Assembly: GCA_050246315.1 (NCBI GenBank)
Contig: JBFWWG010000001.1
Span: 128,001 to 192,000, forward strand
Length of the DNA: 64,000 nt
Reading direction: 5' to 3'
Source of the DNA: Nitrospiraceae bacterium
Lineage (GTDB): Bacteria > Nitrospirota > Nitrospiria > Nitrospirales > Nitrospiraceae
Part shown: piece after piece, positions 37,091 through 59,637 of the stretch
How the letters are laid out: every line of letters starts with the position of its first letter
Numbering within the stretch: the first letter of the stretch is position 1
Translations under genes and position numbers: made by a program
Notes under the pieces: model-generated
Seen by the model: the letters and a program-made list of their open reading frames with translations, nothing else
What the model was told of the DNA's origin: nothing
The model's database searches: none

Positions 37091-37094
37091 CCGG

Positions 37095-39086
37095 CTAGAC
37101 CTCGCGTTGCAACGGCAGCCATACCTCGACGACCGCTCCGCTTCCCGGAGGGCTGTGGATCGCCAATTGCCCGCCGTGCCGTTCGACGATGTCGTGCGTG
37201 ATCGTCAGGCCGAGCCCGACGCCTTTCGCCTTGCCGCTGGTGAAGAACGGTTCGAAGATACGATTCAGATCTTCCGGCGGGATACCCTTACCGGTATCCG
37301 AGAAGATCAAGAGGACGCCCATGCATCGTTTGATTTCCGGGCGGACTGCAATCGTCAGGTCTCCCCCGTTCGGCATGGCATCGATCGCATTCATCATGAT
37401 GTTGAGACAGACCTGCTGCACGTGCGCGGGGGACACCTCGACCGCAGGCAGGTCGGCCGCGATGGTCTTCCTCACATGGACCCGCTGTTTATGCAGGTTC
37501 GTCCGGAGCAATGTCAGCGTGTCGTCGATCAGTGAGGGAAGGTCGCACGGGCGGAGATCGAACGGACGCGGCCGCAACTGACCCAAATGGGCTTCCAGCA
37601 ACCCGTCGATCCGCGCCGCTTCGCGGGCGATGAGGCGGCACCGGTCTCGCGCAGCCGGCGGCAACTGTCCCTGGTCCGCAAGATGCGTCGCGAGGCTCCC
37701 GAGCCCGATCAGCGGGTTTCGGATTTCGTGCAGAATACCGCCGGCCAGTTGTCCGACCAGTTTGACCTGCTCGGTATGGCGCAGCGCCTCGAGCATCTGC
37801 TCCCGCTCGCTCAGATCGGTGAGAATCGCCAGATAATATTGTGTCGTGTCGTCGCGGTCCTTCACAGGACTCACGCTTTCCCAGACCAGAAATTCCGCGC
37901 CGTCTTTCCGGCGGTTGACAAAGCGATCGACGAACGGCTGCCCTGACCGGATGGCCTGCCAGAGGCGATGGTAGAATTCCGGCGGATGCTTGCCGGATTT
38001 CAGGATCGACGGCTGCCTCCCCAGCGCCTCCTCGCGCGGCCAACCGGTCATCCGTTCGAGCGCGGGGTTCCATTCCAGGATCCGGCCGTCGGTGTCGGTG
38101 AGCATGATCCCGTCCTGCGCCGACATGAACAGTCGGTGGTAGAGGTCGATCTGAGTATCGGCCCGCCGCCGTCGCTCCAACACCGTGGCCACCGTATTCG
38201 CCACCGAGCACAGAAATTCCTGCTCCTTCAGGGAAAAGTCCCTCACCCGCTTCGCATGCGCGGTCATCACCCCATAGACCTTGTCCTCGACCAGCATCGG
38301 CACGCACATGCCGGCGATACCTCCATGCTCGGTCAGCAATTTCGACGGGGTAAACCGGGTTTCCTTGCGCAAGTCGCGCACGACCACGGGCACCCGTTCC
38401 CGAATGGCGAACCCGGCCTGCGAATGCGTGCCCCCTTCGATCGTCAACTTCCCGATCAGTTCCTCTTCAATGCCGATACCGGCCATCACAGCCAGGTGGT
38501 CGTCCAACTCCCTCGCGATCAGGATCTTGCACAATTCCACCTCCAGGGCCTCCGCCGTGCGCCGAACGGCTTCACTCATCAAGGCTTGAGCCGGCGCGTC
38601 GCTCACCGCCAACGTGCCGATGCGGGCGAGCACCGATTGAAAGCGGGCGACTTGTGACGCCTCCTGGGCAAGCAGCGTGCGTTCCGTCACATCCTGCAGC
38701 ACCAGGAGCACCCCGGTTCCGCCATGATAGGGCACGACGTTGAAGCGGCACTGATAGATCAGCGGCCGGCCTCGCCGATCCGCAAAACGATAGGTGGTCT
38801 TGCCGCGCGTGCGGAGCGATTCACGATTCCAGACGATCGCGTCGGCAAAGAGGCGCGCGCGGGGCGTTATGGCCTGTTCGGGCGAGTCGGGCGCATCCAC
38901 CATGGCCGACGCCGGGGCTTCAATGAGTTCGCCGAACTGCGCGTTCTCGAAAATAAGAATGCCGCGCGAAATCAGGCACACCCCGCCTTCGATACAGTCG
39001 CTGACCCAGGCCAAGACTTCGGCCGCAGCGACTTCCGCGTAGGCCGGCACGGAACTTTTCGAGTTGGGACGTGGCGTGGACGGCAT
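37095..39086 (-). CDS. Soluble PAS-GAF-PAS sensor histidine kinase
   Basis: No TM segment; GAF (SQAGFAI...CVPM), PAS (WNPALERMTGW...NRRKDG), HEIRNPL, GVGLGL. Confidence 0.9.
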   Translation of the reverse strand: MPSTPRPNSKSSVPAYAEVAAAEVLAWVSDCIEGGVCLISRGILIFENAQFGELIEAPASAMVDAPDSPEQAITPRARLFADAIVWNRESLRTRGKTTYRFADRRGRPLIYQCRFNVVPYHGGTGVLLVLQDVTERTLLAQEASQVARFQSVLARIGTLAVSDAPAQALMSEAVRRTAEALEVELCKILIARELDDHLAVMAGIGIEEELIGKLTIEGGTHSQAGFAIRERVPVVVRDLRKETRFTPSKLLTEHGGIAGMCVPMLVEDKVYGVMTAHAKRVRDFSLKEQEFLCSVANTVATVLERRRRADTQIDLYHRLFMSAQDGIMLTDTDGRILEWNPALERMTGWPREEALGRQPSILKSGKHPPEFYHRLWQAIRSGQPFVDRFVNRRKDGAEFLVWESVSPVKDRDDTTQYYLAILTDLSEREQMLEALRHTEQVKLVGQLAGGILHEIRNPLIGLGSLATHLADQGQLPPAARDRCRLIAREAARIDGLLEAHLGQLRPRPFDLRPCDLPSLIDDTLTLLRTNLHKQRVHVRKTIAADLPAVEVSPAHVQQVCLNIMMNAIDAMPNGGDLTIAVRPEIKRCMGVLLIFSDTGKGIPPEDLNRIFEPFFTSGKAKGVGLGLTITHDIVERHGGQLAIHSPPGSGAVVEVWLPLQREV

Positions 39087-39199: not shown

Positions 39200-39529
39200 T
39201 TATTTCGCGAGGAAACGATCCCGCCGGCTCACCGCGACGTCCGTGACAAACATCGCGCCCGAATGCCGATTGAAGAGCGGACCCAGACCGGCCAGGATCG
39301 GTTCGACCTTCTCTTCCGGTACGACCGTAAACACGATGACCTGGCTGCTCGTGTCATTGAAGAGCAGGTGCCCTTCATGAAAGCCGTGGTGCCCTTTGCC
39401 GGACACGTTGTTGATAATCGTGTAGCCGGTTGCGCCGGTCCGGTCCAGCAGGTCAGTGACAAACTTCAACTGATCCCCCTGCACAACGATCCTGATTTCC
39501 TTCATGGGATGCAGCGTCAAGCTGATCAT
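39200..39529 (-). CDS. P-II superfamily (SbtB-like) signalling protein
   Basis: AGGAGG RBS; MKEIRIVV...GATGYTIINNVSGKGHHG...GAMFVTDV. Confidence 0.85.
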   Translation of the reverse strand: MISLTLHPMKEIRIVVQGDQLKFVTDLLDRTGATGYTIINNVSGKGHHGFHEGHLLFNDTSSQVIVFTVVPEEKVEPILAGLGPLFNRHSGAMFVTDVAVSRRDRFLAK

Positions 39530-42500
39530 GATCCTGTCCTCCTTCATCCAATTCTTCATGAATCCAGTCGGCGGCTCGATCATAGCGATAGCACTGCCGA
39601 TCTCTCGGATCGAGTGCGACGAGAGACACCCAACCCAGATTGAACAATTGTTCCAGCAGCGGATGCCGATAGATGATGCCGCGTATCCGCTCCCGTGGCG
39701 CCTCGATGATGGCCAGCAGCCTCATGGGTTCATGATACGGCGCGGGTCCATTCATCACCGTCTGAGCCGGAAGACCAATGCGCAGATCGCTCCACACCCC
39801 GGACATGACGCCCACGCGACCGGTCACATTGTGGTAGACCTTGCTGCCGCTGCCGTACACCTCGTTATCGACCGTCGAAAAATAATGCTCCATATTGATC
39901 CATTGGGCCACGACAAGCGGGGCGGTCATGATCGTTTCCAAGAGTTTCCCGGACGCATCCTGCCGGTGATCATAGGAATGCAAAAAGGCGCGGCCACGCA
40001 TGTCCACCCGTTGTGTGGCGCTTCGCCGGCCGATGACGATCAGGCTGTTTTTTGAAAGGCCCCATTCCGGGCGGACCTCGGCCCAATCATCGCTGCGCCG
40101 CCGGGCCAACTGCCGAGCGCCTCGAGCGTCGGCGGGTTGGCCCTGGGGAAACGACCCGGCTCGCTCCAGCGCGGCCTGCGCCCCGGCTTCATCGAGGTCG
40201 GCCATCAGCCGCTGGAGGTCTTTCCGGTGTGTGGCCGGCACATCCTCCAGATCGATGAGTCGGACACGGTCCGTCGTGGTGTCATGTTCGGCCGCCAGGA
40301 ATTGGGTATCGCTCGGGATCGGGATGCCCCGGTCCTGCAACAGATTCCGCACCGCAGGCTTGTTGGCCATGGCCGCGATGGTCCTGGCATTCGGCAGACC
40401 GTGGTTACCGCCACAGGCGCCGCAATCGAGCGCCGATTCATACGGGTTGTTGTAGGACGTGCTGCCGTGCGCGCAGAAGACCACGGCACGGGCAAAGTTT
40501 GAGGTCAACCCCATCAGGCGCAGCGCCGCCTCCACGAAGTAGGCCTGTTCCACAATGGAAAATCCCGTGTGGGTCAGTCGATCCAACCGTGAGGAGATGC
40601 CGCGCGGGCTGACCCGGTGGCGTTCTCGGAGTTCCTCATAGAAGACGGTCTCCTCTGCCGGCGTGAATCCCAGCGCCTTCGCCACGTCGCCGTTCGTGTC
40701 CTCGGTCTGACCCACGGCTTTCTTTCGAATCGTCTCCAACAACGTGGGTGAGAGGGCGGCGCCGGAGAGACCGAATCGCTCACGCAGCAGTTCGCGGATC
40801 ACGACCTGCTGCTCGGCCGCCACCATTTCCTCCGCCTGGGCGCGGGCGAGCTTTTCGACCGTCAAGGTGGTCGCCACAGCAGGCATGAAGATGCGCATGA
40901 GCCATCGCTTGACCTGGTCGTACCGGACCGGGAGGAGCGTGCGGCCGAACAACGGCAGGCTGAAGAACCACCCGATCGCCTCCACCATGACATAGGGCGT
41001 GACAACATTCTCTTTCAAATCGTGCAACAGCGCGCGAGCCGCTTGACTGAGCTTCGTCGCGGTCTTGTGCCGATCTGCCAGTGCGCCATGGTAGCTGCGC
41101 GGGACTTCCCGTACCTGGTTCTTGGGTTTAAGCAGCACCGGGCAATGGGAGACCGCGTGGCGGGCGGCAAAGGGTCGGTAGTCTAACGGCACGCCAAAGA
41201 AGCCGGCCAGACCCAGAGTTTCATAGCCCCCTAAGTGTTCGAGATGGCGGCGATACACTTCGGACCGGACATCGATACAGAAGACGACCTGGGCCAACGG
41301 TCGTGACGCGGCAACTGTGTCCGTCGCCGCCAGGTCGGTCGCCGTGGCTTCGGACGCCAGCTTCCTCAACACCTGCCGCCGGTGAGTGGCCTCAAGGGCC
41401 TGTAGCCAGACCGGCTTCTGCCGCGACGCCGGGAAGCTGTCCAACCAGGTGAGCAAGAGGCGAAGGTCGGAGGAAGGCGTGGATTCGATGACGGCGGGAT
41501 CGATCGAGAGGGCACGCGCCAGACGAATGAGCGACCGAGCTGCCTTGCGACGATCCTGCTGCGCGCGCACATCCACCTCCAGGTCGCGGTGCTGGCGTCC
41601 CAATGTCTCCCAGGCCTGATGGTCCAAGCGCTGCTTGCTCCGCAATAGCCGCCTGACTTCCTTGCCGATCGAATCCGGCACCTGTCCGCCGATCCATGCC
41701 CTTCGCAACCGGTAGGCGACGGGATACTGATCCACATAGCGCCGGAGCGCCTCTTCCCCACCGGCGATTCCCAGGTGGGCGCGACAGGCGACCTCCACGA
41801 ACTCTCGTTCATAGAAGAGGCGGACCGAGAGGTACTTGACCAAGTCGATGGGAAACTCTTCCTGCCAAGGATGGCTTCCCTGTTGCGCCCGCCATTTGAT
41901 GTACCCGACCCAACCGGGCATCGCCGCCAGATGCCGTGCGAGATAGGATTCCCATGAAGCCTTTGGAATCGTCATGGTCGCCAGATGTTCCAGCAGCGCA
42001 TCTTCGGAACGGTCGGAAAGGGCAAGGATCTTCGCGGAGGCGTCCGGAATGCCGATCAACCGCAACGTGGTGTCATGCTGTGCAAGCGACTTCCACGCCC
42101 GGTAAAAAGTCTGTTCCCTGCCGGGCATGGACCATCCCACTTCGCCCTCGTCCAAGAAGGCGCTGCACCACTTCACCATTTCCCGATTGATGGTTTCGAG
42201 CAGAGAAGTCCCGAACGTCCGGTCGCACCAGATACCCAGCGTTTCGTCGAGCGGCCATTCAGGCGGAAGGTCCGGGCTGGACACCCGGCCCGAGGAAGCC
42301 GGCTCTTGCGCGGATGCCGCCCGCAGCCACGACAGCACCCTTTCAACGGTCGCCGCATCCTCTTGCGCAGTCGATTCGGCGGCGAACGGTCCGTCCTCGG
42401 TCACCCCGTCGACGATGGAGAGGGTCAGCACATCCAGATGGGAAAGCGAGCGTCCGGCGAAGCACAGCCGGTTCTCGCTCGCCAGCGGCGCGAGCACCGC

Positions 42501-42764
42501 GCGAAGCTCCTTCAGCCCGATGCGTCCCTCACGAACAAAGCAACGATACTCGTCGCTGCTGAGATACCCCCGCCCGCCGAACAGCTCGGTTCCCCGTTCC
42601 ACGGCCTGCTCAAACGGCAACGTCTCCAGCCCGTGCAGCGGATTGTGATGGATGAAGGTGCGCATGGGCCAACACTGAGCGATGACCTCCCCAGCCAACT
42701 CAACATAGGACCGCAACTCCATTCGCTGCGCATCGGTATAGCGGTCACGCGTCGCCTCGGTCAT
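39453..42764 (-). CDS. dabA: DabA (DUF2309) inorganic-carbon pump, carbonic-anhydrase-like subunit
   Basis: FIHHNPL, FCIDVRSE, CAHGS, LDCGACGG, EHDTTTD, WAEVRPEWGL, YHEPMRL. Confidence 0.93.
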   Translation of the reverse strand: MTEATRDRYTDAQRMELRSYVELAGEVIAQCWPMRTFIHHNPLHGLETLPFEQAVERGTELFGGRGYLSSDEYRCFVREGRIGLKELRAVLAPLASENRLCFAGRSLSHLDVLTLSIVDGVTEDGPFAAESTAQEDAATVERVLSWLRAASAQEPASSGRVSSPDLPPEWPLDETLGIWCDRTFGTSLLETINREMVKWCSAFLDEGEVGWSMPGREQTFYRAWKSLAQHDTTLRLIGIPDASAKILALSDRSEDALLEHLATMTIPKASWESYLARHLAAMPGWVGYIKWRAQQGSHPWQEEFPIDLVKYLSVRLFYEREFVEVACRAHLGIAGGEEALRRYVDQYPVAYRLRRAWIGGQVPDSIGKEVRRLLRSKQRLDHQAWETLGRQHRDLEVDVRAQQDRRKAARSLIRLARALSIDPAVIESTPSSDLRLLLTWLDSFPASRQKPVWLQALEATHRRQVLRKLASEATATDLAATDTVAASRPLAQVVFCIDVRSEVYRRHLEHLGGYETLGLAGFFGVPLDYRPFAARHAVSHCPVLLKPKNQVREVPRSYHGALADRHKTATKLSQAARALLHDLKENVVTPYVMVEAIGWFFSLPLFGRTLLPVRYDQVKRWLMRIFMPAVATTLTVEKLARAQAEEMVAAEQQVVIRELLRERFGLSGAALSPTLLETIRKKAVGQTEDTNGDVAKALGFTPAEETVFYEELRERHRVSPRGISSRLDRLTHTGFSIVEQAYFVEAALRLMGLTSNFARAVVFCAHGSTSYNNPYESALDCGACGGNHGLPNARTIAAMANKPAVRNLLQDRGIPIPSDTQFLAAEHDTTTDRVRLIDLEDVPATHRKDLQRLMADLDEAGAQAALERAGSFPQGQPADARGARQLARRRSDDWAEVRPEWGLSKNSLIVIGRRSATQRVDMRGRAFLHSYDHRQDASGKLLETIMTAPLVVAQWINMEHYFSTVDNEVYGSGSKVYHNVTGRVGVMSGVWSDLRIGLPAQTVMNGPAPYHEPMRLLAIIEAPRERIRGIIYRHPLLEQLFNLGWVSLVALDPRDRQCYRYDRAADWIHEELDEGGQDHDQLDAASHEGNQDRCAGGSVEVCH

Positions 42765-44488
42765 CGTGGCACTCGATCGGAAATCGGCCGCGGGCGGTTG
42801 CGCGGTTCCCTAGGTCCGGAACCGGTACTGACGGCCCTCACTGCATCCTCGACATACAGACCGTTGAGAAACGCAACATAGAGGCGGGTATGGAGCGGCT
42901 CGAGCCAGGCCGGAAGTAACAGTCGCATCCCATGGGCTTTCCCATATAAGACGACCCACACGGCGACGACTAGCAGCGCCGATACCCCGACAAACGCATC
43001 GAACAAATGCTGATTCCAAGCTGCGGCTTGGAAGGATGCGGCCACCTGTCCCGGCTCCGGATAGAGGAAATGCGTGAAGGCTTCACCGGCCCAGAGATAG
43101 GTGAGCCCGATGAACGCCAGGGTCGCGATCATCACGGCTGAAACGTCCCAAGATCCGACGGCGTTGAGGCGGTAGAGGCTGAAGATGGCCTGTGCCGAAG
43201 TCACCCAAGCAAAGAACAGGAAGATGACTGTGCCCTGGGATTGGAAGAGCGGAATATTCACCAAGCCATGCGCGATCAGCAGGATGACCAACGGCAACAC
43301 AAGGGTCAGCGCCAATCCGGTGGCCCAAAGCACGAAGGAAAAGGCCGGCGTCTCCCTCACGGCATGATGGCCGGGCAGCTTGAATTCCGTCCGGGCCTTA
43401 TGGATGTTCACTCCCGAGTTGAGAAACAGCGTGGCCTTGAACAGCCCATGGGCACAGAGATGGAACACCGCCAACGCGAACGCGCCCAGACCACACTCCA
43501 TCACCATGTAGCCCATTTGTCCCATGGTCGAGTAGACCAACGTCCGCTTCACGCTGGACTGAGTCAGCATGGTCGCCGCGCCGATCAGGGCCGTGAGCCC
43601 TCCGATCACGAACATCAGATGGAGGGTCGTCGGTGCAAGGCTGTACAGCGGAGCCAACCTGTTGACCAGGAAGCCTCCTGCGTTGACGATCCCCGCGTGA
43701 AGGAGGGCCGATACAGGGGTGGGAGCCTCTATCGTGCCGGGCAACCAGATGTGAAACGGAAACTGCGCCGACTTGGTCATCACGGAAACCAGCAGGAGCA
43801 TCGTGGTCACAGATGGCACATCCAACTGCAGCCCGGCATCGAGCCATGGGACGGATTGCACCGGAGACTGCCTCACGATGGCGAAGATCTCACCAAGGTC
43901 CACCGTCCCGCAAGTCGCATAGAGCACCAGGACCGCCGCTGCGAATGCGACATCGCCGATTCCTTGGATTCGCAATGTTCTTCGACCGGCTTGGACGGCA
44001 GCCGTGCTCGCCGCACGGAACGAGACGAGCGCGACAAGGAACCATGTGACCAGATGCCACCAGAGAAACAACCACAGCAGATTGCCGCTGGTGACCAAGA
44101 GTAAGAGCACGAATGTCAGCAGCCCAAGAAGAGAGAAGAACCGGAGGTACCTCGGATCGCCGGTCATGTATCGGCGCGAATAGACGTGAATCACCAAACT
44201 GACCCATGTGATCAGAACCATCATCACGGCGGCGAGGCGGTCGACCAGCACGGAGTAGCTCATGAAACCCGAGTGGGCGGCTAGGAGGGTCACCTTGATC
44301 GACTCTCCCTGAAGCACCACCACCAGTGTCGCTACCGATGCCAGAGCCGAGGCCCAGAGCGCCGTGATCCCGATCAGACCGCTTCGCTCCCCCAGACCGG
44401 AGCCGAAAAATGGGATCGCCACCCCTGAGAGCAGAGGTGCGAACAGGGCTATTGCCAGAAAGATTGATTCCACTAGAGGCTCCATCAC
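42761..44488 (-). CDS. dabB: DabB membrane subunit (NuoL/ND5-like)
   Basis: KSAQFPFHIWLP, APTPVSALLHAG, HGLFKATLFL; overlaps dabA start. Confidence 0.9.
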   Translation of the reverse strand: MMEPLVESIFLAIALFAPLLSGVAIPFFGSGLGERSGLIGITALWASALASVATLVVVLQGESIKVTLLAAHSGFMSYSVLVDRLAAVMMVLITWVSLVIHVYSRRYMTGDPRYLRFFSLLGLLTFVLLLLVTSGNLLWLFLWWHLVTWFLVALVSFRAASTAAVQAGRRTLRIQGIGDVAFAAAVLVLYATCGTVDLGEIFAIVRQSPVQSVPWLDAGLQLDVPSVTTMLLLVSVMTKSAQFPFHIWLPGTIEAPTPVSALLHAGIVNAGGFLVNRLAPLYSLAPTTLHLMFVIGGLTALIGAATMLTQSSVKRTLVYSTMGQMGYMVMECGLGAFALAVFHLCAHGLFKATLFLNSGVNIHKARTEFKLPGHHAVRETPAFSFVLWATGLALTLVLPLVILLIAHGLVNIPLFQSQGTVIFLFFAWVTSAQAIFSLYRLNAVGSWDVSAVMIATLAFIGLTYLWAGEAFTHFLYPEPGQVAASFQAAAWNQHLFDAFVGVSALLVVAVWVVLYGKAHGMRLLLPAWLEPLHTRLYVAFLNGLYVEDAVRAVSTGSGPREPRNRPRPISDRVPR

Positions 44489-50844: not shown

Positions 50845-52095
50845 TTACTTCGCATCCCGGGCACAGCGGAAGCCTTCGAACCCTTCACCGGCCCGAGCAT
50901 ACTTTCGGATCTGATAGTCAATCTGCGATCCTTCCATTGGTTTCGCTCGGAACGCGCTCAGACTCCCTCGGATCGTTTTCTCGCGTTGATCGCCGGGACC
51001 GGCGGAGAATCTCGACTCCTGGTAGGGACTGGATGTCCATTCCGTGACATTCGGGTCAAGGATGCGGCCCTCGGTATCATGCGCCGCCTTTTCCCATTCG
51101 TCCTCGGTGGGCAGCCGCTTTCCAGCCCATTTGCAGAAAGCCACGGCGTCGTACCATCCCACGTCATCCACGGCTAGGTTGTGATCGCCGGACCAGTCGC
51201 GCGCTTCCCCGGAGGCTCCCGTGACAGGGCGGCCGGTCGTTTCCACAAATTCCTTGAAGCGTTTGACGGTCACCAGACTCTTATCGATGTAAAAATCATC
51301 GGCGACATAGAGACTGGCGGAAGCAGCATCGACCTCCTCGACGAATCCTCCACCGTAGACCGCTACGATCTTGGTCGGAATACGTCCGGCCCGGATCAGC
51401 ACCATCGGCGCGCCGTCTTTGCCGGTGATCTCCCTCATCGCTGTGCCTTCCGGCATGACCTGCCAGCCTTTCAACGCCACCTCAAGGATGGCCGAAGGCA
51501 CCGCATAGCCCATTCGGTCTCGGGCATCGGTCACGACACCCACAACGGTCCCGGCACGAAGCACCGGGCTTCCTGAATGGCCCTCCTCGATCAGGGCCTG
51601 AAAGGACAGCTCCGGTCCTTTGAGTCCGTTCAGACTGCCGGTCGAAACGGCCCAAGGCGCCAATGTCCGTGGAAACCCGATGAGCGTGATCGGTTCGCCG
51701 CCGGTTATCTGGCCGACGCGATCGATCGTCAGCGCGATCAGGCCTTCAGGGAGCGGACCGGAGACAAGCAATGAGGCGAGACCCTTCTGGTTCTGGCTCT
51801 CGATGCCGATGAGACGGGCGGGGAAGCTCTGTTGAGGCTGGGGATAGAATGTGACCTGCGGCCGAGGATCGCCTTCGATGACGTGGGAGGCGGTGACGAG
51901 ATAGGCGGCACCCTTTTCCAGCCGGACGATGAACCCGCTCCCGACCTTCGGCTGCTGCCCCTCGACCTGCGCCGTGATCCTTACCACACCGCTCTTGAGG
52001 TCTTCGATGTCCTGAGCCCGGAGAAACTGGGAAGGCAGGAACAGGATTAGAATCGCAACAAACGCCCTGATGAAGACCGTTCGCGAAAAGGGCAC
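50845..52095 (-). CDS. Exported trypsin-like peptidase fused to FGE-sulfatase (SUMF1) domain
   Basis: Signal peptide, [38 protein letters not shown]; start uncertain because the ORF N-terminus runs through repeats. Confidence 0.8.
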
Positions 52096-52140
52096 GCGAG
52101 TGAACCTAATCCGAAAACAATCGAGGCCCCACAACCCCGT

Positions 52141-52281
52141 ATTTCCTTCGCCCCATGTGGGGAGAGGGGAGGGGGAGGGGCACATCCTCGCGGCTCCACC
52201 CTCACCTGTTTCCTCTCCCTCCGCACCCGTTGCATTGAGGAGAGCACAGGGTACCCGGCTGGCGGACTTTTTCAACATCTT
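52141..52281. repeat. Intergenic repeat composite (GGGAGAGGG/CCCTC palindromes plus MITE-like end)
   Basis: ccttcgccccatgtggggagaggg...; GCTGGCGGACTTTTTCAACATCT resembles the end of the element at 4008. Confidence 0.55.
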
Positions 52282-52282
52282 G

Positions 52283-53353
52283 CTACTGACGTTCTAAGGC
52301 GAAAGAGCCGGAGTTGCCGTTACTGCAGGTCAGATAACCCTGGATCATTTTTCCGCCGTCAGCGACTTCGGAGGTAAAATCGCAACCCACACCCTGGTAG
52401 ACCTGCGACGCCAGGCGTCCGGCAAAGACATTGCCCTGCACCTGGCCTTGCATCACGCCGGCATCGCCTGCATTGTCGGCATAGGTGCCGCTGACCTGAT
52501 CGCCAGTTTGTTGATAGGTCGTTTGGATGACGGATGTGCCTCCCAACAGGGTCATCGCAAAGCCCTGATACGTGCCAGACACCAATCCTATTGCCGGCCC
52601 ACTTGGCGTTGCCGGCGGTGCCGTCATGACCGGTTCCAGTCGATTTTCAGGAGTGGGTTTCGATGGCGGCTTCGGTTCCTCCGAGAGCCGCACACCCCAG
52701 CTATCCAAGGCAAACCTCGCCACCACGGCGGGTACGGCGGTGTTAAACTTGGCCCCCACCTGCGTCACAATGCCCACGACCCTGCCTTGGAACAAGACCG
52801 GCCCACCCGAGTTGCCCTCATCGGCTGTGCCTGAGAAGGAGAGGGCACTCCCCCGGCGACCCGAAAGCGTGCCCGTGGTCACTGTCCACATAGACCCTTC
52901 CGCGCGTGGGAAGCCGATCAAGGTAATGGGTTCGCCTCCGCTGACGGCAGCCGTCTGGTCGAGAGTCAAGGCCACGAGATCGGCGGGAAGCTTTCCTTCG
53001 ACGAGAATTGCAGCTAATCCGGCCGGATCGCCTCCCTCCAGCCCCAGCACGCGAGCGCGGAAGGAGCGGTGCGGCGCGGCCCAGAAAAACACGTTCGGCT
53101 GTGGATCGCCTTCGATGACATGGGAAGCCGTCACGATGTAGACATGGTCCTCCTCCACCTTGACGACGACCCCGGAACCGACCCGATTCGTGCCTTCCAC
53201 CTGCGCCGTGATCTTCACGACGCCTTTCTTGACCTGGGCGATGTCCTGAGCCAGAACCGGGTCGGGGAACGAGGCGAAGTAGAGGGAGAGCAAGAGGATA
53301 GGAACGAAAGTCACCAACCGCCGAGGCAAATCCAAGTCAATCGAGTGGGGCAT
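52283..53353 (-). CDS. Exported trypsin-like peptidase with Pro-rich linker and small C-terminal beta domain
   Basis: Signal peptide, TASHV, GNSGGP; C-terminal domain with two Cys. Confidence 0.82.
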
Positions 53354-53752
53354 CCTTCTGCATCCCAATCAACGCGATGTTGGAATGACCATTGTAGTTG
53401 AGCATGATCTCATAAACCACCAAGCCGGCCAAGCACTGGCACGCGCACCAGATGACCGATGTTCGAAAAGACACCTGGAGTCTTCACGTCACACGGAACT
53501 GGCGCCTGACCTACCGAGTCGACACCGGCGAACAGGAGAACCGCGACGTAACTAGAGAGGGGTCATGCCGTGCGGATGTAGTCGTCCTGTGACATCGCCC
53601 GCACCAGAAAGCGAGCACGGACCATCAAGGTTCGGCGCTACCTCCACACGGCAGAGGCTCCGGCGCGGTAGCATGCCGTGATCTTCCCGCCGGCCGCCTG
53701 TCCATTCATGCCGATTCATTCGACACATCACCCATTCATCCCTGGCGAGATT

Positions 53753-53963
53753 CTCCGCTCGTCTTGAGCATCATTCTCGGTCGTCCTGAGCTTCATCTCC
53801 GTTGGTCCTAAGCTTCCTCTCCGCTCGTCCTGAGCTTCATCTCCGTTCGTCCTGAGCTTCATCTCCGTTCGTCCTGAGCTTCATCTCCGTTCGTCCTGAG
53901 CTTCATCTCCGTTCGTCCTGAGCTTCATCTCCGTTCGTCCTGAGCCAGTCGAAGGACGAACGG
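53753..53963. repeat. Tandem array of nine 22-bp units ending in a full hairpin
   Basis: CTCCGTTCGTCCTGAGCTTCAT; units 1-4 degenerate, 5-8 perfect, unit 9 extends to CCGTTCGTCC...GGACGAACGG. Confidence 0.92.
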
Positions 53964-53997
53964 CCTCCGGACGCACTGTTCAGAGGCTGCGGTGAGC

Positions 53998-54288
53998 CTA
54001 TCGAGTCGGACGCTCCCCTCTCGCCAAGCGAGAGACTTCCGCCCAATCCCCCCGCATCATGGCTTCCTTCTTCTTGCGGCTCCAGCCCTTGATCCGCCGT
54101 TCAGAAGCCAAGGCCTCCTCCCGGGTTGAAAACACCTCGGAGTAGAGGAGCGTTATTGGGCATCTCGTCGCCGTGTAGCCGGTCACCTGGCCGGTATGAT
54201 GTTCGGCCAGACGCTTTTCCAGATCATCGGTATGCCCGGTATAGTACGCCCCGTCGGCGCAGCGCAAGACATACACCCAGAAACTCAT
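53998..54288 (-). CDS. Stand-alone GIY-YIG nuclease (UPF0213-like)
   Basis: WVYVLRCADGAYYTGHTDDLEKRLAEH...EALASERRIKGWSRKKKEA. Confidence 0.93.
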   Translation of the reverse strand: MSFWVYVLRCADGAYYTGHTDDLEKRLAEHHTGQVTGYTATRCPITLLYSEVFSTREEALASERRIKGWSRKKKEAMMRGDWAEVSRLARGERPTR

Positions 54289-54335
54289 GGCACTCGTCCG
54301 GAATTACTGTCGTGCCCCACACATGTGTTCATAAT

Positions 54336-54687
54336 CCGTTCGTGCTGAGCCCTTCGATCAACCAACCGTTCGTCCTGAGGCTCTCGAAGGAGACGGTTGG
54401 TGTTCTCAGGACAGGCCCTTCGACTCGCTCAGGACAGGCCCTTCGACCGGCTCAGGGCGAACGGATTATGACCGGAACCTACGGGACGCAACCCTGGCTC
54501 ATGGTTCGACTAGTGTTGCGTCCCAGAAGTCCGTTCGTGGTGAGCTTATCGAACCCTGCGGTGAGCTCAGTCGAACCGCATGAACGGAACTCCTTGAACG
54601 TGCGCCCTTCGACCGGCTCAGGACAGGCCCTTCGACTGGCTCAGGGCGAACGGATTGTTACCGGAATTTGTGGGACGCTACACTGGC
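54336..54687. repeat. Two duplicated REP-like modules
   Basis: CCGTTCGTNNTGAG arms facing CCCTTCGACNNGCTCAGG(ACAGG/GCGAACGG) arms; 54416-54498 duplicated at about 54605-54687. Confidence 0.85.
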
Positions 54688-54777
54688 ACCAGGAGCCGCC
54701 GATCGGAGCTTGTTGGCCCCTTGCGAGAAACGCCGAAGAACAAGAGAAAAGGGAACAGGGATATAGGGTAAAGGGAA

Positions 54778-56136
54778 TCACCGAACGTCCTGGGCACAGC
54801 GGAACCCGACGTCGCGGTTCCTGCCCATCGGGGTGTACCAGTCCCGGTCCGTGGCTCGCAACCCGGCCGCGAGGCTGTTCCACGACCCACCGCGGATCAC
54901 CTTGCTGTCCCCCCGGTCATAATCCGAACTCGTCCACTCCCACACGTTGCCGGCCAGGTCATGAATCCCATAGGGACTCACGCCCGCCTCATGGCTCCCA
55001 ATCACCCCCAAGGTCCCATAGCCATTCCACTTTGTGTTAAACAGCGCATGCCGACTGGTGGGTTCCTCGTTGCCCCACGGGTACCTCCGGCCGTCGGTGC
55101 CGCGGGCCGCCTTCTCCCACTCCTGCTCGGTCGGCAACCGTTTGCCGTAATGCTTGCAGTAGGCATCCGCATCGTGCCACGTAACATTGACGACGGGTCG
55201 GTCGCCACTTCCCACCAAGGCGACCTGTTGCGACCATTCCTCTGGCTCCGAACGACGGGTCGCTTGCAGGAAAGCGGCATACAGCCTCGTGCTGACTTCA
55301 AACTTGTCTATGTAGAAGGCCGACAGCGACAGCTTCTGATTGTCGTCCCCATACAGGAACTCCCCTTCCGGTACCAACATCATCGGCGCACCGTCCTTGC
55401 CGGTGATCTCACGATCCAGGACCAGTTGCCGCGGTTCCAGTTTGGCCGTCTCAACAGGGGGAGGCGAGGGTTCGGGAGCGGTCGATGCCGTGCTCGTGCG
55501 TTCCCGAGCCATGATGCCGAAGCCCCGAATATACGCTTCGACCCTGTCGGCTGTCAGGCCGCGGCCGGATACCTCTGTCGCCATCACAATCCCAATGACT
55601 TTGCCTTGCCGAATGATCGGACCACCGGAATTCCCAGTGTCAACGGTGGGGGAGAAAAAGATGTCGCTCGCTAAACTCGATCCGACGCTTCCCTTGATCA
55701 CATGCCACGGGCCCGTACCTCGTGGAAATCCAATCACAATGATGTCTTCTCCGGCTGAAAACTTCCTTGTTCCATCGAGCGCCAATGCGGTGATCCCGGT
55801 CGGTAGATTCTGTCTACCCTTCACCAACAGCAATGCCAAACCTCTCATTTCATCATCGCCTTCAGCCCCGCGCAGTACTTCGGCCGGCACCAGGACATGT
55901 TTCTTGGTGAAGAATTCGACCTTGGGGTTGGGATCTGCTGCTACCACATGGGCCGCTGTGAGGATGTATGCCGCATCACTCTCCAAGCGAACGATAATGC
56001 CCGTTCCTGGCCGCTTAGACTCAACTCTGACCACCCCTGATTGCAGACCCGCGACGTCCTGAGCACACACGAAGCCACTTTGGGCCACTCCAAGAATCAT
56101 AACCAGGCAGGCCACAACAATGATTCGGACCCTCAC
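54778..56136 (-). CDS. Exported trypsin-like peptidase fused to FGE-sulfatase domain
   Basis: GTG with AAGGAG RBS overlapping the TIR stop; TAAHV, GNSGGP, RLPTEQEWEKAARG, DLAGNVWEW, RGGSW, GFRC. Confidence 0.88.
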   Translation of the reverse strand: MRVRIIVVACLVMILGVAQSGFVCAQDVAGLQSGVVRVESKRPGTGIIVRLESDAAYILTAAHVVAADPNPKVEFFTKKHVLVPAEVLRGAEGDDEMRGLALLLVKGRQNLPTGITALALDGTRKFSAGEDIIVIGFPRGTGPWHVIKGSVGSSLASDIFFSPTVDTGNSGGPIIRQGKVIGIVMATEVSGRGLTADRVEAYIRGFGIMARERTSTASTAPEPSPPPVETAKLEPRQLVLDREITGKDGAPMMLVPEGEFLYGDDNQKLSLSAFYIDKFEVSTRLYAAFLQATRRSEPEEWSQQVALVGSGDRPVVNVTWHDADAYCKHYGKRLPTEQEWEKAARGTDGRRYPWGNEEPTSRHALFNTKWNGYGTLGVIGSHEAGVSPYGIHDLAGNVWEWTSSDYDRGDSKVIRGGSWNSLAAGLRATDRDWYTPMGRNRDVGFRCAQDVR

Positions 56137-57674
56137 CGCTTGAACTCCTTCCAGAGCCGAAAGGCGCCGAGGCTGGTGGTGAACACGGCCACGATGATGG
56201 TGAAGAACACCGCCAACTTGGCGTTGTGCCACAGCGCGTCGAACGCCGTAAGCCGGTGTTTCTGAATCGGAAGCTGGCCCGTTTTCGTGCGGATCTGCTT
56301 GGCCAGGCCATTGCCGACCACCGCCAGTCCCTTGCCGTCAGGCGACAGTGCGATGCGCTCGATGGTGAATTTCTCCAGCCGCTCCAAGCCAATGGCCTCA
56401 TCCTCTTTGAGCGGCAGGCTGCCGAGATGCGGATAATCGGGGAAGCTGATCGTACCTTGCCCAGTCAGCGCGCTGACTCGCTCGCCGGATGTCTCCTGCT
56501 TGGTGAAATCCAATGTTGTCACAGGTATGCCGCTGAGGAGCGAGGTTGCCGTCTCTCGTGAGGCAAAACTCGGCGAGAGGATCAGTCCATCCGATGCCGC
56601 AGCTATCTCCATCCAGGAGACTCGGTCCGGCAGGGTAATCCGATAGGTCAGCTCGTCCTGTTTCTGAAACGGAACGTCAGTCACGCCGCGTAGCTCTGCA
56701 TGGTCGGCAATCAATCGGAACGGATCATGAATCGAGAGGGCGACGGTCTCCTGTCCCGCGACCTTGATTGTGAGCCCCTCGTGGCTGCGCCCGCGTGTTG
56801 CCAACATGACGCGCGTTCCCGGCGCCACCGGCAGGGGGTCGAGCCGGATGGTTTCCTTGCCCGCGGTGAGTCCCTCCACCGTCACCCGTGGATGGCGCGT
56901 ACTGTCCTTGACGCTCACGGTGACCTTGGAGTTCGTGGCGGTCAGGGGCTTCCAGGCCGATGGCGGAAAGTCATCCGTTTCGACCTGATATTGCGACGGA
57001 TCGGCCACTTCGATCCGTTCCGGTTCAAAGGCCATCGTGGCAAACTTCTCGATGGCGATCGAGCGGAGCCCGATCCCGCCCAAGGTCGTCTTGCCTTGCC
57101 CCGTCGCCCCGACCTCAAACTCCACCCGTTCCGTGGTCAGTTCGACTTGGACCCGCGCGGCAAGAGGCCACAGCATAAGCCCAACCGCCACGATCGCCGC
57201 TATGGCCGTCGGCAGACTCACGAGCCAGAATGGATGCATTCGTTTCCACCAAGGCCTCTGACCGATTTGGACTTGCCTTGGCGGACTCTTGACGAGTCGT
57301 TCGATATCTTTGAGGAGTTGCGAAAATCCAGGATGATCGATGCCCGCTTCCCAATCCACGAGGGATTGAAAGGTCCGTTGGGTAAAGCCGAGCGGGATGT
57401 CGCTCTTGTCAATTTTGACGGGGAGATATTTTTCTTGATTCTTGGCTTCGGCAGCTTCCGCTTGAACCCACTCGGACTCGACGGATTGTTCGGACCACAC
57501 GACAATCGCGCATTTCGCTGCTCCGAGTTCCTGCCTGATGACGGTGTTGAACGATCCGCCGGTTGGAATGTTGCGATCCCACCAGACGGACCAGCCATAG
57601 GTTCCCAATGTCTTGGCAAGCTTCTCGACCCAGGGACGGTCCTTGCTCGAATAGCTGATGAAGATGTCGCTCAT
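56133..57674 (-). CDS. TIR-domain membrane protein (TIR-TM-large beta-rich domain-TM)
   Basis: DIFISYSSKD, VWWDRNI, SVESEWVQAE; hydrophobic segments near residues 150-172 and at the C-terminus. Confidence 0.88.
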   Translation of the reverse strand: MSDIFISYSSKDRPWVEKLAKTLGTYGWSVWWDRNIPTGGSFNTVIRQELGAAKCAIVVWSEQSVESEWVQAEAAEAKNQEKYLPVKIDKSDIPLGFTQRTFQSLVDWEAGIDHPGFSQLLKDIERLVKSPPRQVQIGQRPWWKRMHPFWLVSLPTAIAAIVAVGLMLWPLAARVQVELTTERVEFEVGATGQGKTTLGGIGLRSIAIEKFATMAFEPERIEVADPSQYQVETDDFPPSAWKPLTATNSKVTVSVKDSTRHPRVTVEGLTAGKETIRLDPLPVAPGTRVMLATRGRSHEGLTIKVAGQETVALSIHDPFRLIADHAELRGVTDVPFQKQDELTYRITLPDRVSWMEIAAASDGLILSPSFASRETATSLLSGIPVTTLDFTKQETSGERVSALTGQGTISFPDYPHLGSLPLKEDEAIGLERLEKFTIERIALSPDGKGLAVVGNGLAKQIRTKTGQLPIQKHRLTAFDALWHNAKLAVFFTIIVAVFTTSLGAFRLWKEFKR

Positions 57675-57701
57675 GGGCGAGACTCAGGTCTCGATGGCAC
57701 A

Positions 57702-58475
57702 CTACCGTGCTGTAGGCCGGTGAAAGAACCGCACGGTCTGTTGCAGGGGCTGATTCGTGTCGAGAAAATAGCCGTTACAGACCAGGGAGTACTGGCCTTC
57801 CCTCGCGCCTCCCGCGTCCCACCGCACGGTGAAGGGACGGCCGCCGGGAATGCGGCGAAACGATTGTGTCATGCGCTCCGACGGTTCACCTTCCCGATAG
57901 ATTTTGCAGGACAGCCGCGCATCTCCGTTGGTTTTCATCGTGAAGAAATACCCGCCGATCTTCTCGGGCGGCTTCCTGTGATAGAGAATTGCCGGCGCAA
58001 TGTCCTCAACCGAGGCCGGCGTGTCCTTCTTGAGACGAATCAACACGCCTAGATCGTATACGTTGAGCTTCTGATCCAACTGCCGCAGCACCGTTCCCGT
58101 CGGCCAGGTGAACTCATTCACCTCATTGGCCTGCCACCGCCTTGGTGGTTTCACGTTGTTGTCGAGCCAATAGTACAGGCGGTAATCCTGTTCCCTGACG
58201 GTCAGATGAACAGGAGTCTGGCCTTGGAGGTAGAAGGCCACCCGAAGCTGGTCTGGCAGTTGCTCGGCAGGCTCCTGGTAATCGACCAGGGCGGAGATCA
58301 CCTCGATATCATAGCCGGAAACCGGCTTGGGCCTGATGCCTTCGTTGTAATCTCCGCGCTTTTGATAATCCAGGCTTGATTCGGCGCCAACAGCCTGAGG
58401 CAGCAGGAAGAGAACAAGAAGGAAAAGGACCTGTGTGAACTTGAGAACCATGGCAGACACCGAAGGGCGGGTCAT
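57702..58475 (-). CDS. Exported hypothetical protein
   Basis: Signal peptide VLFLLVLFLLPQAVGA; ends 27 bp before the TIR gene start. Confidence 0.75.
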   Translation of the reverse strand: MTRPSVSAMVLKFTQVLFLLVLFLLPQAVGAESSLDYQKRGDYNEGIRPKPVSGYDIEVISALVDYQEPAEQLPDQLRVAFYLQGQTPVHLTVREQDYRLYYWLDNNVKPPRRWQANEVNEFTWPTGTVLRQLDQKLNVYDLGVLIRLKKDTPASVEDIAPAILYHRKPPEKIGGYFFTMKTNGDARLSCKIYREGEPSERMTQSFRRIPGGRPFTVRWDAGGAREGQYSLVCNGYFLDTNQPLQQTVRFFHRPTAR

Positions 58476-58498
58476 GAGCCACAGATGCGATCGAAATC

Positions 58499-58653
58499 AG
58501 AAGTCATTTCAAAACCCTCCGCCCACCCGGTTCGATCAACTCACCGCAGGCTTCGACGGGCTCAGAGCGAACGGACATGCTCATGAAAACATCCTATTTC
58601 TCCGTTCGTGCTGAGCCTGTCGAAGCACGGTCACGAGGTTTGATATGACTTCT
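58499..58653. mobile_element. MITE-like element enclosing a REP-like pair
   Basis: TIRs AGAAGTCATTTCAAAACC / GGTTTGATATGACTTCT; internal GCTCAGAGCGAACGG and CCGTTCGTGCTGAGC. Confidence 0.65.
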
Positions 58654-58830: not shown

Positions 58831-59247
58831 TCACGGTTTGAGATCAAAGCTCGGGCAGTGTCGTGGACGAACCAAAGAGAAATGTCGTCGATCCGTTGTC
58901 AACAATTCATTGATCTTGAGCCGTTCCGCCACGGCCACAACCGAGGCGTCCACAAATCCGAGAGCGGCGTCTGAATATTTCGCCATCACCTCGACGGTTC
59001 GCGTCAGATCGTGAATACTCAAAAATTCGACCTTCACTTCCTTTCGATGCAGGGAACGGGCGAATTCTATCTCCACGTGTGCACCTAAATGAGCATCGAT
59101 CAAATAGCACGCCTCCGGCAGCACCGTGATCGGCACAATGAGGCGTCGAGGGAGAGCCGTCAAGAACGCGACGATACGCTCATGCCAACTGTCATCCCGA
59201 TCAACCATGGCGTACAAAGGACCAGTGTCCACCAGAATGGGCTTCAT
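58831..59247 (-). CDS. vapC: VapC PIN-domain toxin
   Basis: ILVDTG, VLPEACY, GFVDASVVA, TTDRRHF. Confidence 0.92.
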   Translation of the reverse strand: MKPILVDTGPLYAMVDRDDSWHERIVAFLTALPRRLIVPITVLPEACYLIDAHLGAHVEIEFARSLHRKEVKVEFLSIHDLTRTVEVMAKYSDAALGFVDASVVAVAERLKINELLTTDRRHFSLVRPRHCPSFDLKP

Positions 59248-59483
59248 TTCTTCAATTTATGGGGAGCGGTCCAGAGAAGCTCTTCGACCCGTTCGGCAAT
59301 ATCTTTTCTCCCGCTTCTCCCGATGCCGAGAAACGATGGGAGGGCTCCTGAGCCCTGATGTCTATCGACAAATTCTTCCAGCGCGCGCCGAATGGCACCC
59401 GATAGGCTGATGCGCTCTTTCTTCGCGATGTGTCTCAACGCGTCCAACAAGGCCTCATCGGCAAAAATAGTCGTTCGTTTCAT
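59244..59483 (-). CDS. vapB: RHH/CopG antitoxin
   Basis: MKRTTIFADEALLDALRHIAKKERISLSGAIRRALEEF; overlaps toxin start. Confidence 0.88.
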   Translation of the reverse strand: MKRTTIFADEALLDALRHIAKKERISLSGAIRRALEEFVDRHQGSGALPSFLGIGRSGRKDIAERVEELLWTAPHKLKK

Positions 59484-59637
59484 GCATACACCAACGTATG
59501 CGATATAGTACAATTGTACGCATACATCGTCAAGGCTGGAAATTTCACAGGCTGCTCGTGCAACCGGCAAGAGACACGGGACTGATGGAAGCTCCGGCCA
59601 CGATGGTGGTGAACCGATGGTGCTTCAGAACTTCGTT

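Follow-up and report, generated by a model that had tools for sequence, protein, structure and literature searches.

A putative envelope-surveillance module in Nitrospira combining a two-pass TIR membrane protein, a secreted partner and trypsin-like proteases

Conflict systems centred on nucleoside triphosphatases (NTPases) have been described by Kaur et al. in 2020 (PMC7159879) and 2021 (PMC8195603) and by Dore et al. in 2024 (PMC10907252). In the portions of these papers drawn on here, the systems sense invaders inside the cell and combine STAND, MoxR-vWA or GAP1 NTPases with effector-associated adaptor domains, and FGE/C-type-lectin domains diversified by diversity-generating retroelements (DGRs) are treated as their sensors. 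In this study, we analysed a 64-kb stretch of a Nitrospira chromosome (the whole stretch is hereafter called the window; genome G000, 4.39 Mb in 30 contigs). Five intact, co-oriented open reading frames (ORFs) on its minus strand, at 50845-58475, encode a secreted protein (Exp257), a two-pass membrane protein with an N-terminal TIR domain (the receptor) and three trypsin-like proteases (TrypFGE1, TrypBeta and TrypFGE2; Table 1). L, G and P numbers denote the compared loci, genomes and proteins, respectively. As far as those portions go, the published systems and the present one have in common the TIR, SEFIR-like and CHAT/caspase domains, the trypsin-like peptidase and the DGR-diversified FGE/FGS lectin fold, as well as the swapping of effectors, a patchy occurrence and aggregate-forming hosts. 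Unlike them, the present locus is predicted to sense in the periplasm, and no NTPase, vWA or adaptor domain was found in the five proteins with Pfam at E<=0.01. We read the locus as an accessory envelope-surveillance conflict module, in which proteases with binding domains gate a receptor shielded by Exp257 and the TIR domain serves as the effector, and we give this reading roughly even chances. What would be new beside the known TIR/trypsin/FGS/DGR conflict systems is the periplasmic sensing, the lack of an NTPase and the two new core families. Full-text searches of the open literature, which did not extend to subscription journals or to the supplementary tables of comparative-genomics papers, where such neighbourhoods could be listed, gave no description of the Exp257-receptor-protease trio.

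Two further systems, both described here from general knowledge, offer points of comparison. The closest mechanistic analogy in bacteria, one of logic only, is the E. coli sigma-E relay of DegS, RseB and RseA. In both arrangements, a trypsin-fold protease of the periplasm ends in a ligand-binding domain, a membrane protein is covered on its periplasmic part by a secreted protein (as modelled here for Exp257), and the output is cytoplasmic. The C-terminal domain is PDZ in DegS, whereas it is FGE, Sel1 or Ig-like here; an anti-sigma domain stands where the present locus has a two-pass TIR/SEFIR/CHAT protein; and the present locus is patchy in its distribution, not universal. No match to PDZ, anti-sigma or MucB_RseB was obtained in the five proteins (Pfam, NCBIfam), and Exp257 matched no RseB family in these databases. 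The second system is the Toll pathway of Drosophila. A first-pass annotation of the window, made from its letters and whose interpretation was partly supported overall, had called the architecture Toll-like. This stood as an analogy of parts: extracytoplasmic trypsin-fold proteases, a secreted partner modelled on the outer domain of a receptor, and a membrane-bound receptor whose TIR domain is cytoplasmic. Toll and Toll-like receptors have a leucine-rich repeat (LRR) ectodomain, a single membrane pass and a C-terminal cytoplasmic TIR domain. In contrast, the TIR domain here is N-terminal and optional in the receptor family, the protein passes the membrane twice in reversed topology, no LRR was found in the receptor (Pfam), and the periplasmic domain profile gave nothing below E 0.79 against PDB sequences. 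Furthermore, Exp257 is a tandem beta-sandwich protein, whereas Spaetzle is a cystine-knot cytokine. The likeness is an analogy confined to the parts list; apart from the folds of the TIR domain and the proteases, nothing points to homology.

We consider the unit of Exp257, the two-pass protein and one or more proteases to be real from its co-occurrence counts in Nitrospiraceae and Burkholderiales. Full-length receptor homologs were common in Nitrospira; the best 120 of 186 matches showed 53-100% identity, nearly all of them end to end. Among contigs with one genome per species, 31 loci had a full-length or near full-length receptor homolog. Of these, 21 were labelled Nitrospira, Nitrospiraceae, Nitrospirota or, in the case of L009, 'uncultured bacterium', and 10 belonged to Burkholderiales or Pseudomonadota, with receptors at 28-34% identity. 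In 29 of the 31 loci, the gene immediately upstream of that for the receptor encoded an Exp257 homolog. On the downstream side, 26 loci had room for a further gene, and a trypsin-like gene followed in 25 of them. When 201 Nitrospiraceae genomes were searched, the Exp257 profile and the periplasmic-domain profile matched the identical 15 genomes, with the two genes side by side. The periplasmic domain was also present in 15 of 401 Burkholderiales genomes (G459 enters only this count). In 12 Burkholderiales loci, a protease gene was adjacent in every case (12/12) and Exp257 was present in 11, adjacent in 10 and 6 kb away in one; the twelfth locus starts inside the receptor gene. The trio in Burkholderiales was at 28-45% identity and amid unrelated flanks, for instance genes for RoxA-like cytochromes, DUF1571 and YceI. 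A 4-nucleotide (nt) start/stop overlap between the receptor gene and the first protease gene was observed in the window, L024, L026, L105 and L108. The proposal in the first-pass annotation depended on the co-occurrence of homologs, and such co-occurrence was found in Nitrospiraceae and Burkholderiales alike.

These counts bear on the explanation that the genes stay together by vertical inheritance in Nitrospira, without joint function. Most Nitrospira loci do share the flanking genes h350, GDPD, pterin dehydratase, IMPase and LpxC, as this explanation expects. However, the trio recurs in Burkholderiales at low identity between unrelated flanks, Exp257 and the receptor domain show identical presence and absence across the 201 genomes, the coding regions overlap by 4 nt, and a complex is predicted (see below). 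We therefore regard purely syntenic association, which cross-order conservation already contradicts, as very improbable. That the system is an accessory element, inherited and lost together, is strongly supported by the comparison of genomes. The distance from h350 to the gene for pterin-4a-carbinolamine dehydratase was 615-700 nt in two complete Nitrospiraceae genomes without the system, and 9.6 kb in the window, where a CBS-domain gene, the system and a PIN/RHH gene pair lie in between. Degraded copies were found in G169, L018 and L109, and in G169 both Exp257 and the receptor domain were degraded.

Judged by its distribution, Exp257 is an obligate partner of the receptor periplasmic domain, and from the modelled complex it probably binds this domain physically; it had been listed earlier as a mere exported hypothetical protein, which understates its part. 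Exp257 consists of two tandem beta-sandwich (Ig/FnIII-like) domains. Structure prediction, a check named in the first-pass annotation, placed residues 33-257 of Exp257 on the periplasmic domain with ipSAE values of 0.81, 0.81 and 0.79, whereas the best of three controls gave 0.00; the model had 84-85 contacts and a partner pLDDT of 86-87. Of 157 solved complexes, 116 reached the mark applied to ipSAE, as did 2 of 215 mismatched pairs; this benchmark holds only roughly here since custom alignments were used. The modelled interface involves the invariant Exp257 residues K50, P51, V52, G54, D185, G211 and P214, and on the receptor side residues 294-299 and 393-399. The alignment shows these two loops to be prone to indels. 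In a subgroup of Nitrospira orthologs (e.g. P0104-P0115), insertions occur at receptor residues 294/295 and ~393-399, one of them rich in Lys, Glu and Arg and 12-19 residues long. Because both loops lie under Exp257 in the model, they are candidate protease bait loops.

We then considered the receptor itself. Its N-terminus matched TIR_2 (PF13676) at 8e-25 and 88.1 bits over residues 4-112, against a curated cut-off of 28 (Pfam), and was modelled with a flavodoxin-like TIR fold (AlphaFold, pLDDT 81). The same model was all-beta at residues 173-463, with ~30 beta strands. Hydropathy analysis gave the two hydrophobic segments listed in Table 1, and basic residues were found on the TIR side and in the short C-terminal tail. 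From these segments and the flanking basic residues, the ~315 residues between them are predicted to face the periplasm, in agreement with the earlier proposal that the middle domain is periplasmic rather than cytoplasmic. The Glu of the SxWxxxE motif had likewise been reported as kept; the motif is S67/W69/E73, and E73 was invariant in 26 aligned homologs. This residue aligns with the W-x-x-x-E Glu of the solved chain 'NAD(+) hydrolase AbTIR' and with that of PdTIR, and we take this Glu to be the catalytic residue of such TIR domains. Since the operon encodes no candidate reader of a TIR-made signal (Pfam and PADLOC, five proteins), depletion of NAD+ is the simplest guess for the TIR output. 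Models of Thoeris and other TIR anti-phage systems (ThsB, SAVED-TIR, retron-TIR) share with the receptor a TIR_2-type domain with the conserved Glu; their matches cover residues 3-143 at most and lie far under the family cut-offs (28.3 vs 600 bits; 21.8 vs 220). In Thoeris, a partner gene of the ThsA type (SIR2/SLOG or Macro) adjoins the TIR gene. No ThsA-type, SAVED or reverse-transcriptase model matched among the five operon proteins (PADLOC, Pfam), the rest of the genome not having been searched for ThsA. A fold search with the whole receptor model was filled by TIR matches and did not place the periplasmic domain.

The periplasmic domain defines a new and modular family as judged from the proteins that carry it. 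Pfam, NCBIfam and PADLOC 2.0 contain no model for this domain or for Exp257, so that the PADLOC check proposed in the first-pass annotation returned no model for the core proteins. Among 1.84 billion representatives, 526 proteins matched the domain profile at E<=1e-3; with the limit set at E<=1e-10, the number was 382. From the best 150, we took 79 apparently full-length proteins and scanned them with Pfam. An N-terminal TIR_2 domain alone was found in 38, SEFIR in 2, an N-terminal CHAT caspase-like domain in 3 and a C-terminal AAA-type ATPase in 1 (P0154). The other 35 had no Pfam domain and were plain transmembrane-domain-transmembrane proteins of 345-562 residues. Because TIR_2, SEFIR, CHAT, an ATPase or no domain at all can accompany the periplasmic domain in these representatives, the TIR domain is, on this comparison, a swappable output of the receptor family, and not the constant part for which it had been taken. 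The short, TIR-less forms occur in Burkholderiales and Geobacteraceae; in L099, L106 and L107 such receptor genes are still flanked by Exp257 on one side and the proteases on the other, with 4-nt overlaps. In a language-model comparison (ESM Atlas), the features of the short form P0123 resembled those of cyanobacterial proteins with scores of 0.95-0.96, and the periplasmic domain reached 0.87 with unnamed cyanobacterial clusters of ~400 residues, which serves as a lead only. In metagenome scans, neither the SEFIR form P0187 nor the CHAT form P0278 had a relative.

The proteases were more diverse than the rest of the module. Their number varied from one to four per locus, and their C-terminal domains were FGE-sulfatase (full or half length), Sel1/TPR, Ig-like (ASH/DUF1573) or unclassified. 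Across the 58 catalytic domains that we aligned, neither the His nor the Ser of GxSGGP varied. The closest solved relatives by sequence were staphylococcal Spl and V8-type S1B proteases, with a weak match (E 0.0025). TrypFGE1 covered profile positions 5-254 of 255 of FGE-sulfatase (PF03781) with 156 bits; TrypFGE2 covered positions 23-123 of 255 only, and its orthologs showed the same partial coverage. TrypFGE1 was the least conserved gene across Nitrospira, with 38-60% identity; for Exp257, the receptor and TrypBeta the range was 60-78%. Full-length TrypBeta orthologs were found at 65-77% identity in Nitrospira and at 35-36% in two Burkholderiales loci.

An intact DGR was found within the operon at L001 (L001:11769-15156), whose receptor is 93% identical to that of the window. 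There, a truncated first protease gene (remnant at ~11600-11750) is followed by bAvd (Pfam 2.8e-18), a reverse transcriptase (RVT_1, 2.5e-22), a 115-nt template repeat and a complete trypsin-FGE gene that contains the variable region. Over the 115 positions, 17 mismatches separated the variable region from the template, and all but one of these (16) fell on template adenines, a pattern that is the signature of mutagenic retrohoming by a DGR, as read from the two repeats. L012, L005, L007 and L014 also have fragments of the reverse transcriptase or of Avd inside the system or close to it. Furthermore, the scaffold RGGSW...R-[SA]-A-x-R...GFRC-x-x-D forms the end of every FGE-bearing protease, and the positions between its conserved residues are hypervariable. 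The L001 element and this scaffold support the earlier view of the FGE domain as a ligand-binding module and place it in the hypervariable, DGR-target kind. In the window, the C-terminal 115 nt of TrypFGE1 (54786-54900) carry the variable-region scaffold RGGSW...GFRCAQD. Compared with the L001 template, they had 34 mismatches in 115, of which 16 were not at adenines. Compared with the stretches resembling variable regions or template repeats beside the DGR reverse transcriptases of the same genome on C5 (L112) and C3 (L111), they had 39 and 43 mismatches, of which 31 and 24, respectively, were not at adenines. These two other DGR-type reverse transcriptases of G000 (C3:244985-246004 and C5:67667-68677) are 53-54% identical to that of L001, and each is accompanied by an Avd-like gene and a template-like stretch.

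The direction in which a signal would travel has to be weighed at this point. The cytoplasmic TIR, SEFIR or CHAT domain might sense infection and pass a signal outward, in which case Exp257 and the proteases would be effectors that degrade envelope proteins or receptors, killing the cell or blocking adsorption. This would fit the proteases being the most variable and most duplicated part, and also fits the treatment of trypsin-like peptidases and FGS domains, mostly as conflict-system effectors, in the cited portions of PMC8195603 and PMC7159879. However, 35 of the 79 representatives have no known sensing cytoplasmic domain, and yet the proteases and Exp257 are kept, as seen in L099, L106 and L107. 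TIR, SEFIR and CHAT domains are, moreover, better known as outputs than as sensors. In addition, a lectin fold diversified by a DGR suits a ligand sensor better than a degradative effector, as far as the part of PMC10907252 used here describes it. We consider such an inside-out arrangement quite unlikely.

The envelope-surveillance reading, in which the proteases act as sensors through their C-terminal binding domains, would operate as follows. A foreign ligand in the periplasm, such as a surface molecule of a phage, predator or competitor, would bind the C-terminal domain and license the protease. The licensed protease would then cut Exp257 or the receptor loops beneath it. With the restraint lost, the halves composed of TIR and the first transmembrane segment could associate, and the TIR domain would consume NAD+ or make a nucleotide signal, leading to arrest or death of the cell. 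The output swapping, patchy distribution, pseudogenes, empty site and variable number and domains of the proteases are hallmarks of conflict systems and support this reading at the level of genome comparison. A more far-reaching version is that the locus represents an extracytoplasmic innate-immune pathway, in which hypervariable lectin-fold proteases, some of them DGR-diversified, release the Exp257-guarded receptor to signal through TIR, SEFIR or CHAT. If true, this would be a functional counterpart, by analogy, of the protease-Spaetzle-Toll and IL-17R/SEFIR routes of animals; we put this version forward tentatively and think it doubtful.

Several observations weigh against envelope surveillance. 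L041 and L051 had no Exp257 upstream of the receptor, and L029 had Exp257 and the receptor without an adjacent protease. The usual position of the catalytic Asp was Gly in 54 of the 58 protease domains; conserved Glu (54/58) and Asp (55/58) residues lie nearby and might substitute for it. TrypFGE1 of the window was rejected as a live DGR target, its own genome having no cognate template repeat. Because of the lack of a template match and the many mismatches off adenines, its FGE domain is better described as a putatively fixed, formerly or potentially variable binding site. PADLOC gave generic TIR and protease similarities only when run on the genes. Since 35 of the 79 representatives have no known cytoplasmic domain and L099, L106 and L107 nevertheless keep Exp257 and the proteases, the module must, on this comparison, have a function independent of TIR; that the TIR-less forms work via their membrane helices is speculation. 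Cleavage, NADase activity and a phenotype are proposals.

The remaining points on this side concern the surroundings and the rate of evolution of the genes, and they lead to another explanation, namely that the locus encodes a protease complex anchored in the inner membrane, which in biofilm-forming nitrifiers would serve the quality control of envelope proteins, their maturation or stress signalling, with TIR as a metabolic or second-messenger signalling enzyme. In the window, the system is flanked by housekeeping genes and lies in no defence island. Housekeeping flanks were likewise observed in 10 of the 11 Burkholderiales loci scanned, L105 being the only one with an integrase and a transposase. 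Across L002-L016, identities were 69-78% for Exp257 and 60-73% for the receptor, as compared with 60-66% for LpxC and 80-88% for pterin dehydratase; the core is as conserved as the neighbouring housekeeping genes, which would not be usual for receptors in an arms race. RNA libraries of three studies contained contigs identical to the window across parts of all five genes, which fits a housekeeping role, at low depth and with the limit that contigs do not prove transcription, operon structure or expression level. The resemblance in logic to the DegS/RseA/RseB relay points in the same direction. So does a gene for a DUF1571 protein that follows the protease gene in one Burkholderiales lineage (L024:7093-7863, L026:11991-12731, L101:9196-9666 and L109:5059-5445); the protein, a possible additional component of the system, has a weak N-terminal match to MucB_RseB (1.2e-5). 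Set against this, the system is confined to 15 of 201 and 15 of 401 genomes, relatives have an empty site, and some copies are pseudogenised. Furthermore, the swapping of TIR, SEFIR and CHAT and the DGR diversification of a binding domain are typical of conflict systems. A housekeeping role is accordingly judged unlikely, though it accounts for the flanks and the slow evolution of the core.

If envelope surveillance is correct, a periplasm-watching module that signals across the inner membrane to TIR, SEFIR or CHAT would constitute a new sensing compartment in bacterial immunity; to our knowledge, the bacterial TIR systems known so far sense invaders inside the cell. Two uncharacterised protein families would gain a role, DGR-diversified lectin domains would become the specificity part of a protease sensor, and the parallel between bacterial and animal TIR proteins could be tested as the logic of a pathway, beyond single domains. 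The hosts are wastewater and soil nitrifiers, namely Nitrospira and at least one Burkholderiales genome with amoC, and we know of little work on the phage and predator defences of these organisms. The amoC gene (L099:26-520) and a TIR-less copy of the system are separated by 5 kb, and that proteobacterial host is an ammonia oxidiser. The module is carried by both nitrite and ammonia oxidisers of shared habitats.

The layout of the locus is summarised in Table 1. The five co-oriented genes of the first-pass annotation were borne out as intact ORFs with Pfam matches to TIR_2, Trypsin_2 and FGE-sulfatase, and hydropathy gave signal segments for the proteases and Exp257, which had all been called secreted or exported. 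The translational coupling proposed for the receptor and TrypFGE1 genes was also confirmed: the receptor stop TGA and the TrypFGE1 start GTG overlap by 4 nt as GTGA at 56136-56133. Because of this overlap, the start of TrypFGE1 was set at 56136, and the ORF given in Table 1, rather than the longest one, is most likely the real gene. TrypFGE2 probably starts downstream of 52278; alignment with its orthologs begins only at about residue 42-75 of the longest ORF, and its signal segment corresponds to residues 68-86 of that ORF. The series is interrupted between TrypFGE1 and TrypBeta by an insertion of 1.4 kb that the earlier description had missed and that is probably outside the system proper.

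Table 1 Features of the locus. Coordinates refer to the window unless L001 is named; the boundaries of receptor segments are predictions.
Feature	Position	Strand	Description
Exp257	57702-58475	-	257 aa; secreted; N-terminal hydrophobic signal segment
Receptor (TIR protein)	56133-57674	-	513 aa; TIR residues 1-~130, first transmembrane segment (TM1) ~148-168, predicted periplasmic domain ~171-484, second segment (TM2) ~487-505
Receptor periplasmic domain (predicted)	56223-57164	-	All-beta; residues ~171-484
TrypFGE1	54778-56136	-	452 aa; Pfam Trypsin_2 1.6e-14, FGE-sulfatase 1.9e-45; signal segment
TrypBeta	52283-53368	-	Pfam Trypsin_2 1.9e-17; signal segment; unclassified C-terminal domain of ~110 residues
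TrypFGE2	50845-52278	-	Pfam Trypsin_2 1.2e-12, FGE-sulfatase 2.3e-21 (partial); signal segment
Insertion	53369-54777		GIY-YIG gene, 22-nt tandem array and REP-like repeats, between TrypFGE1 and TrypBeta
GIY-YIG gene	53998-54288	-	Pfam GIY-YIG 1.4e-17
22-nt tandem array	53752-53945		8.8 copies
PIN/RHH (VapBC-like) toxin-antitoxin pair	58831-59570	-	Pfam PIN 4.7e-12, RHH_1 8.2e-7
L001 template repeat	L001:13251-13365		115 nt
L001 variable region	L001:15034-15148		C-terminal 115 nt of the trypsin-FGE coding sequence

A 15-mer REP-like motif, CCGTTCGYCCTGAGC, had 17 matches in the window as compared with 0.57 expected, nearly all of them in the insertion or just upstream of Exp257 (58560-58616). 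The REP-like repeats bracket the segment with Exp257, the receptor and TrypFGE1. A joint in one RNA run that skips 54466-58598, and with it these three genes, was examined as a possible deletion variant and rejected; it had 28 letters on one side and lay in repeats. Scans for promoters and terminators gave results at or below shuffle expectation and were uninformative. L001 and several Burkholderiales loci likewise have a GIY-YIG gene close to the system. The PIN/RHH pair of the window lies within the same insertion/deletion segment as the system, and among the compared loci only L001 has it; a Phd/PIN toxin-antitoxin pair is located between protease genes at L001:16534-17240. Toxin-antitoxin pairs were not conserved with the system.

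Elsewhere in the window, a DabA/DabB pair was found at 39453-44488 (DabA, Pfam 7e-269, with a proton-antiporter-type subunit), which is a probable uptake system for inorganic carbon. It is adjoined by a sigma-54 two-component pair at 35693-39086.

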